From a phage, in sequence record OR846335.1: DNA of 1,122 nt. One strand, given 5' to 3'. Below the pieces are notes generated by a model. It was given only the letters and a program-made list of their open reading frames with translations, made no database searches and was not told the DNA's origin. Positions 1-1,122 of the stretch are shown one piece after another (position 1 is the stretch's first letter; the number at the start of each line of letters is the position of its first letter). Position numbers and translations under genes: made by a program.

Positions 1-1053
1 GCGTACTTTCGCCAGGCTTTGCCACGGTGAAACGTCGTTGCCGTGAACCATCCGCTCGGTGAGATAATAGAGCGTGTAGTCAGCGGAAATGCCGATAACG
101 CTCATGCTCATCACCAGCGTCATCAGGTGTAATTCACCGAAAATCAATAAAGTGGCGACCGTTCCCGCCAGCGCGCCGATGCCGATGGAAATCACGCAAA
201 GCAGCAACGGGCGTAAAGAGCGGAACACCGCCACAGTCAGCAATATCACCCCCAGCAGCGTAGCCACGCCCAGGGTGGAGATATCCTGCTTCGCCTGTTG
301 GCTGGCGTAATCGCTGTAAAACACCGTGCCGCGCGAGAGCAACTGTGCCTGCGGGTAACGCGTTTTCAGATCCTTTTCCAGCGTATTCAGGGTCGTGATC
401 AGCTGGTGGGTTTGCTGCATATCAAACGACGATCCCGCCAGTTCGCCGTGCAGCAGATACCAGTAGTTGCCCTGGGGATCCTGCGTCACCAGCCAACCGT
501 CCATCAGCCGCAAACGCTGGCCGTTTTTCGCCATTGCCAGCTGCGAGCCGCGCATTAACATCAGCGGATCGTTTTGCAGCTCCTTGCCGCTTACGCCGGA
601 GAATGCGGAATAAAGCTGGGAGAGGATCCACTGTGCCTGCGCTCCGCCGCCGTTTTGCAGGCGGGCGCGGGTGTTGGGGTCAATCAGGCCGTTGCGATGC
701 TGCCAGAAAAACGCTCCCCACGCCTGCTGGCTGGCGGCATCCATTGGCCCTTTAACGTCGCCGAGCGCAGCGGATTTTTGCAGCAGCGTCAGCCACTCCT
801 GAGCGACCAAAGGATTAGCCTCTTTACCGGGGCTGACCAGCCACACCAGTTGGCGGTCAAGACGCTGCATAAAGCCGTCATTCAGCGCCGGAGGAATATC
901 GCCCATCGTCTGTTTGGGTAACATAGCCAGCACGCTACTGTTCAGCCGTGATTGCGGCAGCAGGATCAGCAACGCCACCGCCATGACCAGGCAGACTAGC
1001 CCCCATAACAGCGCGGGGCGTTTACTGGGCGGCAAAACGTTGGCGTTCGTCAT
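1..1053 (-). CDS. MMPL / RND-superfamily inner-membrane exporter, N-terminal 351 codons; partial, the 3' end continues beyond window position 1
   Basis: Hand translation of the minus strand from ATG (plus 1051-1053) gives 351 codons with no stop down to position 1; the nearest upstream in-frame stop is TGA at plus 1063-1065. Protein begins MTNANVLPPSKRPALLWGLVCLVMAVALLILLPQS (basic N-terminus then hydrophobic helix), continues with a ~220-aa mostly hydrophilic domain, then ISTLGVATLLGVILLTVAVF / RSLRP / LLLCVISIGIGALAGTVATLLIF / GELH / LMTLVMSMSVIGISADYTLYYL. This layout (TM1, large periplasmic loop, TM2-TM4 with a G-x-x-x-D-Y helix) is the established topology of RND/MMPL transporters. Family assignment rests on topology and motif recognition, not a database search. 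Confidence 0.85.
   Translation of the reverse strand, partial: MTNANVLPPSKRPALLWGLVCLVMAVALLILLPQSRLNSSVLAMLPKQTMGDIPPALNDGFMQRLDRQLVWLVSPGKEANPLVAQEWLTLLQKSAALGDVKGPMDAASQQAWGAFFWQHRNGLIDPNTRARLQNGGGAQAQWILSQLYSAFSGVSGKELQNDPLMLMRGSQLAMAKNGQRLRLMDGWLVTQDPQGNYWYLLHGELAGSSFDMQQTHQLITTLNTLEKDLKTRYPQAQLLSRGTVFYSDYASQQAKQDISTLGVATLLGVILLTVAVFRSLRPLLLCVISIGIGALAGTVATLLIFGELHLMTLVMSMSVIGISADYTLYYLTERMVHGNDVSPWQSLAKVR
61..282 (-). other. TM2-TM4 bundle of the exporter (residues ~258-331), including the G-I-S-A-D-Y motif (Asp codon at plus 79-81, Tyr at 76-78)
   Basis: Three hydrophobic helices are separated by very short loops (RSLRP and GELH). The last carries VIGISADYTLYYL, which resembles the conserved TM4 Asp-Tyr proton-relay motif described for MmpL3/HpnN-type MMPL transporters and the TM4 acidic residues of RND pumps. 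Confidence 0.6.
283..951 (-). other. Large soluble loop between TM1 and TM2 (residues ~35-257), predicted periplasmic porter-type domain
   Basis: About 220 residues of mixed, mostly hydrophilic sequence with several Trp and no Cys, flanked by hydrophobic helices. By analogy with RND/MMPL architecture this is the first periplasmic domain. Its boundaries are estimated by eye. Confidence 0.5.
955..1014 (-). other. Predicted TM1 / signal-anchor helix of the exporter (residues ~14-33, ALLWGLVCLVMAVALLILLP), preceded by basic residues K11 and R12
   Basis: An uninterrupted run of about 20 hydrophobic residues follows Lys-Arg in the hand translation, consistent with the positive-inside rule. No lipobox is present (residues before the Cys are G-L-V, not [LVI][ASTVI][GAS]). 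Confidence 0.6.
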
Positions 1054-1122
1054 CGGTCAGTTGCGCTGGCGTCAGTTGATGTTGGGTAAGAGCAATATCG
1101 GTGCGATCGCCCTGTTTATCAT
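1022..1122 (-). CDS. 3' end of the upstream minus-strand gene (C-terminal 32 codons plus TAA stop); product unknown; partial, the 5' end is beyond window position 1122
   Basis: Minus-strand frame from plus 1120 down to 1025 is open and reads DKQGDRTDIALTQHQLTPAQLTDDERQRFAAQ, ending at TAA (plus 1022-1024). It is in a different frame from the exporter and overlaps the exporter start by 32 nt. Only 32 residues are visible, so no product call is possible; the call relies on the open frame, same-strand operon-like arrangement and enterobacterial-type codon usage. Confidence 0.5.
   Translation of the reverse strand, partial: DKQGDRTDIALTQHQLTPAQLTDDERQRFAAQ

Follow-up and report, generated by a model that had tools for sequence, protein, structure and literature searches.

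The closest described systems to the locus analyzed here are the ApeM proteins of Escherichia coli CFT073 (c1191, identified as ApeM in Table 1 of PMC8253772) and of Xenorhabdus doucetiae, which fall in the APPE family, TC 2.A.6.8 (PMC10924465). The founding member of the APPE family is the xanthomonadin exporter of Xanthomonas oryzae, and its link to ApeM comes from the literature (PMC10924465; bioRxiv 10.1101/2020.12.19.423268). ApeM was proposed to be a transporter of the aryl polyene (APE) lipid that acts together with ApeL and ApeN (PMC8253772); the same proposal was made in bioRxiv 10.1101/2020.12.19.423268. When apeM is deleted, a low level of pigment remains and APE metabolites are undetectable (PMC8253772). 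More distant points of comparison are HpnN, the hopanoid transporter of Burkholderia (PDB 5khn, 5khs, 6wu0), the mycobacterial MmpL3, MmpL4 and MmpL5 of the HAE-2 family, and the Lol pathway (LolCDE-LolA-LolB).

The window, which is the whole 1,122-nt stretch of DNA analyzed, is dominated by one minus-strand frame that stays open for 351 codons down to base 1. The sole stops in the reverse-complement frame ending at base 1 are located at window positions 1072–1074 and 1057–1059, and TTA, CTA and TCA are absent from plus-strand frame 1 over positions 1–1053, as the initial annotation had claimed for positions 1–1050. In a shuffle test (n = 2000), the longest open frame had a mean of 131 codons and a maximum of 297; because none of the 2000 shuffles reached 351 codons, the length of the frame is not due to chance. 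GC content at codon positions 1, 2 and 3 of the frame is 0.61, 0.42 and 0.74, respectively. The genome scan for apeM loci covered the 80 closest species loci, all Enterobacterales-like. Across these 80 species, variability at the three codon positions is 0.10, 0.07 and 0.29, pN/pS has a median of 0.2, and the 351 aligned codons are free of stops in every sequence. Stops, shuffles and substitution pattern agree in confirming the 351-codon minus-strand frame proposed initially; it is a real gene under purifying selection. The list of ORFs supplied with the window omits frames that run off its ends; this ORF extends past the left edge and is missing for that reason alone. The list did hide the main gene, as had been stated; the gene that dominates the window is ordinary and was guessed correctly, and only the dropping of edge-crossing frames kept it out of the list.

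Plus-strand ORFs of 73–115 aa are also present in the window, and one of them (for example, that at 574–921, 115 aa) could be taken as the true gene, with the long minus-strand frame being incidental. We give this reading virtually no chance. ORFs of these sizes are expected from shuffled G+C-rich sequence, given the mean noted above; they have zero Pfam matches, they are not called in any annotated genome, and the substitutions across the 80 species track the minus frame. The five longest competitors (four plus-strand ORFs, one minus-strand) all lacked a Pfam match, and the plus-strand gene with homology that the initial annotation had named as the contrary finding was not seen among them. 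The plus-strand reading is already refuted by the Pfam and substitution results. A 69-aa minus-strand ORF was likewise rejected as a gene, having no Pfam match and a substitution pattern that follows the other frame. As for a structured RNA, the single Rfam match was below threshold (HEARO, 17 bits versus 83, E = 0.59) and was treated as chance. Promoter and terminator scans returned one promoter-like and four terminator-like sites within coding sequence, near the shuffle expectation. No inverted repeats were found in the window, and its three direct repeats, short and two-copy, were taken as chance.

The window is 99.7% identical at the nucleotide level to Escherichia coli O157 chromosomes, and its sequence was found in 824 of 5426 complete E. 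coli genomes. In RefSeq, the O157 counterpart is the 772-aa protein WP_000180194.1, named 'MMPL family transporter'; the window ORF corresponds to its N-terminal 351 residues, with 2 aa differences in this part. Aligned with CFT073 ApeM, 343 of the 351 residues (98%) are identical, with no gaps, and by this measure the window ORF is orthologous to CFT073 ApeM. Very probably, the window represents part of the E. coli APE biosynthetic gene cluster, namely the 5′ 45% of apeM together with the 3′ tail of apeL, and ApeM is the proposed APE-lipid transporter. The features are collected in the table below. apeM is an already described gene, and there is nothing new in its identity; the initial annotation guessed the transporter class and missed this known identity.

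Features of the window (positions in the 1,122-nt stretch; residues numbered in ApeM)
Feature	Position	Strand	Basis or detail
apeM, N-terminal 351 of about 772 codons	1..1053	-	Start ATG 1053-1051; continues beyond the left edge
TM1 (residues 12-34)	952..1020	-	Kyte-Doolittle peak 2.95 at 14-32; AlphaFold helix 12-34, pLDDT >90
First periplasmic porter-like domain (residues 35-242), predicted	328..951	-	AlphaFold; Foldseek matches listed are of the RND superfamily
TM2, TM3 and TM4 (residues 243-337)	43..327	-	Hydropathy, AlphaFold, Pfam MMPL, HpnN alignment
Asp325-Tyr326 in TM4, motif GISADY, candidate proton relay	76..81	-	GAC TAC at 81-76
Asp162-Pro163, 'DP(L)' motif in the periplasmic helical insert	565..570	-	Conservation
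apeL 3′ end, LolA-like periplasmic carrier	1022..1122	-	Last 33 codons and TAA stop 1024-1022
apeL/apeM out-of-frame overlap, dual-coding	1022..1053	-	32 nt

The initial annotation regarded the transporter as the only sensible reading of the window. This is correct in that apeM is dominant; however, the window also encodes the C-terminus of ApeL. The apeL tail translates as DKQGDRTDIALTQHQLTPAQLTDDERQRFAAQ up to its stop codon, which matches the C-terminus of WP_000670562.1, annotated as a LolA family protein. Full-length ApeL matches Pfam LolA and LolA_3 and carries a Sec signal peptide, and ApeN carries the lipobox LTGC followed by Ser. apeM is flanked by apeL and by apeN, the DUF3261 lipoprotein gene; its neighbours are polyketide/fatty-acid-type enzymes, the LolA-like protein and DUF3261. 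The gene order J-K-L-M-N-O was observed in all 80 species loci (closest loci), and the complete 18-gene order apeA-R, in agreement with Table 1 of PMC8253772, in both O157 and CFT073. One relative with 35% identity also lies within an APE-type cluster with DUF3261. The window copy thus resembles CFT073 in the position of apeM between apeL and apeN, in the apeA-R order and in the length of the apeL/apeM overlap. Different from CFT073, the window allele is nearest to the O157-type copy; it is O157-type, located between acpT and yhhT, whereas the CFT073 copy (96.9% nucleotide identity) belongs to an island flanked by an integrase, near dgcT/pga.

The 351-aa fragment alone matched Pfam MMPL (PF03176) over residues 251–328 (18.9 bits, E = 8e-4), narrowly missing the gathering score of 20.5; the full-length ortholog passed it with 33.2 bits (E = 3.6e-8), which bears out the MMPL/RND/exporter assignment made from the sequence initially. 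NCBIfam gave weak HAE3, HpnN, BstA and MMPL matches, and other sources label the relatives 'Predicted exporter', which is the name of COG4258. A protein of 750–900 aa with 12 TM helices had been expected; the ortholog has 772 aa, its hydrophobic segments are consistent with 12 TM helices, and the ORF is 768–780 aa long in 79 of the 80 species (closest loci), the exception being 391 aa in size (L028). By hydropathy only, the hydrophobic segments beyond the window part lie at residues 350–398, 429–450 and 626–765, with a second loop at about 451–625. This is a large family, with 1408 cluster representatives passing E ≤ 1e-10; most have 750–800 aa. Proteins found by homology search were only partial or frameshifted, none of full length; full-length family sequences were drawn from the genome loci and a representative library.

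The AlphaFold model of the 351-aa fragment, built with 70 sequences, has a pLDDT of 91.3 and a pTM of 0.80; with 13 mostly fragmentary homologs the pLDDT was only 59.6. In the model, the periplasmic domain is about 210 aa in size and contains a β-α-β core (strands 68–76, 97–101, 181–205 and 237–242) together with a helical insert at about 106–178; TM2–TM4 are formed by helices 243–277, 281–305 and 310–337. The layout of TM1, large loop and TM2–TM4 read from the letters initially is seen both in hydropathy and in this model. As predicted by the model, the window ORF has the N-terminal architecture of the RND superfamily, namely TM1, a periplasmic porter-like domain and TM2–TM4. All 50 Foldseek PDB matches listed are of the RND superfamily; the top ones are MmpL4 (5.4e-6) and HpnN (9.5e-6), both with a probability of 1.00. 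In listing order, MmpL4/5 and HpnN come first, followed by Patched, MmpL3 and AcrB-like pumps; the TM-scores are about 0.45–0.5, as expected for half a protein. Consistent with an internal duplication, window residues 277–334 align with residues 660–710 of CFT073 ApeM (E = 0.001), and many family members have two matched stretches to the query.

The presence of AcrB-like pumps far down the Foldseek list, together with a weak Pfam ACR_tran match (E = 0.11), could suggest an AcrB/CusA-type (HAE-1/HME) drug or metal efflux pump working with a membrane-fusion protein and an outer-membrane channel. However, the ACR_tran match of 10.5 bits is far under the gathering score of 28, and the ApeM ortholog is 772 aa long versus about 1040 for pumps of this type. 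The partners are missing as well: no MFP or OMF gene was found in the 31-kb neighbourhood of the O157 copy (within 15 kb). By structure, the top matches are MmpL4/5 and HpnN, which transport lipids. We therefore consider an efflux pump extremely improbable, and effectively refuted.

Among solved structures, HpnN is the closest to ApeM by sequence, with E-values of 2e-6 when the full-length ortholog was the query and 6.7e-9 when the family profile was. In the window protein as in HpnN, TM1 is followed by a periplasmic domain that contains a helical insert, and then by TM2–4; both proteins possess a single conserved TM4 Asp (ApeM D325, HpnN D344). Neither MFP nor OMF takes part when HpnN moves lipid from inner to outer membrane, and the same would hold for ApeM. 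Unlike HpnN, which is about 880 aa long and is not encoded beside LolA-like or DUF3261 partners, ApeM is 772 aa long; the two share about 15% identity. The NCBIfam HpnN models scored 23.3 bits against a cut-off of 751.85 (TIGR03480) and 14.9 against 1100 (NF052374); on these scores, ApeM is a distant relative of the HpnN hopanoid transporters and not a member. With MmpL3/4/5, ApeM shares the Pfam MMPL domain and the TM4 Asp-Tyr, and MmpL4/5 are its best Foldseek matches. MmpLs rely on accessory periplasmic partners in exporting lipids or siderophores to the envelope, and ApeM may do so too. However, identity to the MmpLs is 12–16%; the partners of MmpL4/5 are MmpS and AcpM, whereas that of ApeM is a LolA-like carrier; and MmpL4/5 function in diderm-mycolate envelopes, ApeM in Gram-negative ones.

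Asp325-Tyr326 is kept in 81 of 81 enterobacterial sequences. Among 70 family representatives, which span 23–86% identity to the window protein, D325 is present in all 70 and Y326 in 69; in the periplasmic insert, D162 is present in 70 of 70 and P163 in 69 of 70. Profile alignment placed ApeM D325 on HpnN D344 (GLGVDF). The latter residue is reported to be functionally essential by Kumar et al. 2017. In MmpLs, Asp/Tyr pairs of TM4 and TM10 constitute the proton relay (PMC8427324). Whereas MmpLs carry the Asp-Tyr pair twice, in TM4 and in TM10, enterobacterial ApeM has Asn-Tyr at the TM10 relay position, so that the canonical two-Asp relay is absent.

The TM10 Asn may instead point to APE-lipid transport without proton drive, in which ApeG, a COG4648 membrane protein encoded in the cluster, energizes ApeM, or ApeM serves as a passive scaffold or flippase. 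ApeG was named as a possible energy source in both experimental papers (PMC8253772; bioRxiv 10.1101/2020.12.19.423268), and MmpL7 offers a precedent of an MmpL without canonical relay (PMC8427324). Against this stand the invariance of the TM4 Asp and near-invariance of the Tyr in the divergent relatives, the alignment of D325 with HpnN D344, and the TM10 Asp kept by 48 of 67 family members; moreover, RND-superfamily transporters are generally driven by PMF, as is established (PMC8427324). We judge transport without proton drive to be unlikely, and proton-driven transport is the reading followed below.

The 32-nt apeL/apeM overlap is present in 80 of 80 species loci (closest loci). Third-position variability is 0.08 in apeM codons 1–11 versus 0.31 in codons 12–60, and no Shine-Dalgarno-like sequence was found upstream of the apeM ATG. 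These features suggest that the overlap probably couples the translation of carrier and pump.

The window copy has three differences from the nearest genomes, and two of them are non-synonymous and private (G137 and T273), not shared by CFT073 ApeM. Residue 137 is Gly in the window copy and Glu in most relatives; residue 273, in TM2, is Thr in the window copy and hydrophobic in 70 of 70 family representatives. Together with the truncated or frameshifted apeM copies that exist elsewhere (the 391-aa L028 and many fragments), these changes might indicate a decaying or non-functional allele. However, the 351 codons are present without stop or frameshift, the substitutions are mild, neither the start codon nor the apeL overlap is disrupted, and three SNPs are too few for inferring relaxed selection. 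Decay of this copy is thus very unlikely.

Taken with the published proposal, the likely function of ApeM is proton-driven hand-over of APE-lipid to its partners ApeL and ApeN, which would deliver it to the outer membrane; its substrate, direction and energy source are those we infer from the comparisons above. ApeM would be seated in the inner membrane, where the proton gradient, acting through Asp325/Tyr326 of TM4 and the Asn/Tyr partner of TM10, would move its periplasmic domains. It would then extract the finished APE-lipid from the inner membrane and hand it to periplasmic ApeL, which would ferry it to outer-membrane-anchored ApeN for insertion. The mechanism may be likened to that of MmpL3 for trehalose monomycolate and of HpnN for hopanoids. 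It also resembles the Lol pathway, in which cargo passes from an extractor in the inner membrane to a periplasmic carrier of the LolA fold and on to a lipoprotein receptor anchored in the outer membrane; ApeN has been described as LolB-like (PMC8253772). Unlike the Lol pathway, in which an ABC transporter is the motor and lipoproteins are the cargo, the relay would have an RND motor, and its presumed cargo is a glycolipid-like APE lipid. ApeL-ApeM-ApeN might therefore form a mechanistically distinct lipid-export route: an RND-powered Lol-like relay with an asymmetric proton relay (TM4 Asp-Tyr, TM10 Asn-Tyr in Enterobacterales), an Asp162-Pro163 hand-off site, and an overlap setting the carrier-to-pump ratio. 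Taken jointly, these points make up a tentative proposal, to which we assign somewhat less than an even chance.

For the route that brings the APE pigment-lipid to the outer membrane there is so far only a model, and the residues to mutate first, D325/Y326 and D162/P163, lie in the window. APE clusters have been described among the most widespread bacterial biosynthetic clusters (PMC8253772; bioRxiv 10.1101/2020.12.19.423268), and they are linked to oxidative-stress protection and biofilm formation.

Within the reverse-complement frame ending at base 1, stop codons are confined to window positions 1072–1074 and 1057–1059, and 351 codons are open on the minus strand from an ATG at 1053–1051 to the window edge. 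Plus-strand frame 1 is free of TTA, CTA and TCA over positions 1–1053. When the window was shuffled 2000 times, the longest open frame over six frames had a mean of 131 codons and a maximum of 297; GC content by codon position in the observed frame is 0.61/0.42/0.74. The stop positions and the shuffles confirm the 351-codon frame proposed in the initial annotation, which had also rightly noticed that the ORF track misses it, because ORFs running off the source are left out of the ORF list. Its view of this frame as the only sensible reading of the window was correct for the transporter gene and slightly too strong overall, since the C-terminus of the neighboring apeL gene is also encoded (Table). 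Because the window ends at codon 351, the intactness of the gene in the source strain can be assessed over its first 351 codons only. A HEARO RNA candidate inside the coding region (788–868, plus strand) was taken as a chance match, with 17.1 bits in Rfam against a gathering threshold of 83 (E = 0.59).

By megablast, the window was found in 824 of 5426 complete Escherichia coli genomes, every copy being chromosomal, with a top identity of 99.7% to O157 and related strains. In NZ_CP022050.2, the frame corresponds to the first 351 codons of WP_000180194.1, a 772-residue 'MMPL family transporter', whose annotated start falls exactly on window position 1053. The gene belongs to an 18-gene operon-like block flanked by yhhT and acpT. 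Compared with the table in PMC8253772, this O157-type block matches apeA–apeR of the E. coli CFT073 aryl polyene (APE) cluster gene for gene; there, apeL is described as 'LolA-like chaperone', apeM (c1191) as 'RND family transporter' and apeN as 'DUF3261, LolB-like'. The window protein is identical to CFT073 ApeM at 343 of 351 positions without gaps, and the DNA identity is 96.9%. The window ORF is therefore the ortholog of ApeM, which the literature assigns to the APPE family (TC 2.A.6.8; PMC10924465), founded on the xanthomonadin exporter of Xanthomonas oryzae. Publications already describe this gene, the APE cluster and the role proposed for it; the gene correctly called in the initial annotation is a known one. 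AcpT, whose gene adjoins the O157-type cluster, is a phosphopantetheinyl transferase reported to activate the O157:H7 ApeE/F homologues.

The cluster occupies two chromosomal sites in E. coli. The O157 copy lies beside acpT/nik, and the CFT073 copy (1143727–1158748) lies elsewhere, near dgcT/pga, in an island that also contains an integrase, IS remnants and pseudogenes. Carriage of apeM is limited to 15% of the complete E. coli genomes. The two sites, the 96.9% identity between copies and this low frequency are consistent with horizontal mobility.

ApeM belongs to the RND superfamily. In line with the initial annotation, it matches Pfam MMPL: the full-length ortholog scores 33.2 bits and the 351-residue fragment 18.9 bits (E = 8e-4), above and below the gathering threshold of 20.5, respectively. 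HMMER, run exhaustively over 1.84 billion cluster representatives, found 2493 relatives at E≤1e-3, of which 1408 reach E≤1e-10; most relatives are 750–800 residues in length. The fragment covers residues ∼10 to ∼350 of these, often plus a weaker second stretch; together with a local match between the N- and C-terminal halves of ApeM, this indicates an internal duplication, as is typical of the RND superfamily. The closest solved structure by sequence is HpnN 5khn (E = 2e-6; 6.7e-9 with the family profile). NCBIfam matches to BstA, HAE3, HpnN, MMPL and SecF are weak and all far sub-threshold, and an HpnN equivalog was rejected on that ground. An AcrB-type pump was likewise rejected, as the ACR_tran match reaches 10.5 bits where 28 are required and the 31-kb neighborhood holds no MFP or OMF genes.

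An AlphaFold model built with 13 fragmentary homologs was poor (pLDDT 59.6) and was replaced by one built with 70 diverse relatives (pLDDT 91.3, pTM 0.80). Hydropathy supports the layout of this model, and both bear out the predicted arrangement of TM1, a large loop and TM2–TM4. In the full-length ortholog, further hydrophobic segments are consistent with TM5–TM12, with a second loop at ∼451–625; together with its 772 residues, this agrees with the 750–900 residues and 12 TM helices expected initially. All 50 PDB matches listed by Foldseek belong to the RND superfamily, with MmpL4/5 and HpnN first (E 5e-6 to 1e-4, probability 1.00), then Patched, MmpL3 and AcrB-type pumps. TM-scores are only ∼0.45–0.5, which we attribute to half a transporter being modelled alone.

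Features of the window, ApeM and the ape loci (residue numbers refer to ApeM)
Feature	Position	Strand	Description or basis
TM1	residues 12–34	minus	AlphaFold helix
Periplasmic domain	residues 35–242	minus	AlphaFold
Beta-alpha-beta core of periplasmic domain	strands 68–76, 97–101, 181–205, 237–242		AlphaFold
Helical insert of periplasmic domain	residues ∼106–178		AlphaFold
TM2–TM4	residues 243–277, 281–305, 310–337	minus	long helices, AlphaFold
Asp325-Tyr326	window 76–81	minus	TM4 motif GISADY
Asp162-Pro163	window 565–570	minus	'DP(L)' motif, helical insert of first periplasmic domain
apeL 3′ end	window 1022–1122	minus	last 33 residues and TAA stop of LolA-like ApeL
apeL/apeM overlap	window 1022–1053	minus	32 nt, out of frame
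NZ_CP022050.2 block	genes 1–4		lipoprotein, methyltransferase, chain-length factor, lysophospholipid acyltransferase
NZ_CP022050.2 block	genes 5–9		two ACPs, hypothetical protein, acyl-CoA/ACP synthetase, FabZ-like dehydratase
NZ_CP022050.2 block	genes 10–11		GT2 glycosyltransferase, thioesterase
NZ_CP022050.2 block	genes 12–14		LolA family protein, MMPL transporter, DUF3261 protein
NZ_CP022050.2 block	genes 15–18		ketosynthase, ApeP dehydratase, FabG2, ketosynthase
L083 cluster (distant relative)			chain-length factor, acyltransferase, two ACPs, AMP-binding/ApeI-like protein, GT2, aromatic lyase, thioesterase, halogenase, DUF3261, ApeP-like protein, ketoreductase, ketosynthases

When species-representative genomes were scanned, 504 had relatives, and the best 80 of these (75–99% identity) were kept. 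Among these best 80, the apeJ-K-L-M-N-O order is intact in all, and the apeM ORF is 768–780 residues long in 79; the single exception, Kluyvera genomosp. 3 YDC799, has apeM truncated at 391 residues. Variability by codon position is 0.10/0.07/0.29 over the 351 aligned codons, with a median pN/pS of 0.2, and no stop codon interrupts them in any sequence compared. The overlap between apeL and apeM measures exactly 32 nt in all of the best 80 loci, as well as in O157 and CFT073. Third-position variability is 0.08 in apeM codons 1–11, within the overlap, against 0.31 just downstream, as expected from dual coding. No Shine-Dalgarno-like motif precedes the apeM ATG, which points to translational coupling, and the overlap looks like a conserved means of coupling the carrier with the pump.

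A relative at 35% identity (locus L083, 9001–13284) also lies within an APE-type cluster, in an assembly heavily broken up by frameshifts. Trp-halogenase-like and aromatic ammonia-lyase genes are present, and the cluster suggests a product that would be halogenated and xanthomonadin-like. An apeJ–O locus ∼80% identical to the enterobacterial one occurs in NZ_JBQPOM010000012.1, labelled as the Gram-positive Vagococcus sp. WN89Y; contamination or a mislabelled assembly is likely. A word-indexed protein search returned no full-length (∼772 residues) ApeM members. Many related database 'proteins' are frameshifted fragments (for example P0002, P0010, P0013, P0025 and P0045); P0002 joins ApeM residues 1–358 to unrelated sequence.

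The Asp-Tyr pair of TM4, a candidate functional site, is present in 81/81 enterobacterial sequences, and across 70 divergent representatives Asp is found in 70 and Tyr in 69. In the profile alignment, D325 falls on HpnN D344 in GLGVDF. HpnN D344 is said to be functionally required, reportedly from work by Kumar et al. in 2017. In MmpL proteins, the proton relay consists of Asp/Tyr pairs of TM4 and TM10 (PMC8427324). The TM10 counterpart in ApeM, outside the window (∼13960–13980 of the O157-type locus), is Asn-Tyr, in GIGINY or GIGVNY; Asn is present in all 79 full-length enterobacterial ApeM with the TM10 motif, and Asp in 48 of 67 family representatives. With Asp-Tyr in TM4 and Asn-Tyr in TM10, the proton relay of the enterobacterial clade would be asymmetric. 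The Asp162-Pro163 motif is a second candidate site; with Asp in 70/70 and Pro in 69/70 representatives at 23–86% identity, it equals the TM4 Asp in conservation.

Compared with the nearest E. coli genomes, the window has three base differences, two of them non-synonymous and private. Codon 137 (643–645, minus strand) encodes Gly, where 60/81 enterobacterial sequences have Glu; codon 273 (235–237, minus strand), in TM2, encodes Thr, where 79/81 have Ile and all 70 family representatives have a hydrophobic residue. Neither G137 nor T273 occurs in any of the retrieved sequences, and each may be an allele of the strain or a sequencing error.

ApeM has the architecture of an RND transporter, is conserved, and keeps a fixed partnership with ApeL and ApeN. 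ApeL carries a typical Sec signal peptide, MKFLPLLALLISPFVSA. ApeN has the lipobox LTGC followed by Ser and is therefore predicted, by the standard +2 rule, to be an outer-membrane lipoprotein. Deletion of apeM leaves only low-level pigment, with APE metabolites undetectable (PMC8253772). We suggest that the proton gradient, via D325/Y326, would drive the periplasmic domains of ApeM, which would lift the completed APE lipid out of the inner membrane and hand it to ApeL; ApeL would then carry the lipid to outer-membrane ApeN. The same export pathway has been proposed previously (PMC8253772; bioRxiv 10.1101/2020.12.19.423268); different from those models, in which ApeG might supply the energy, we prefer the proton gradient. 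The nearest parallels to the way ApeM would work are HpnN and MmpL3/4/5, which export lipids without MFP/OMF partners, and the overall logic of the ApeM–ApeL–ApeN route resembles that of the Lol pathway.
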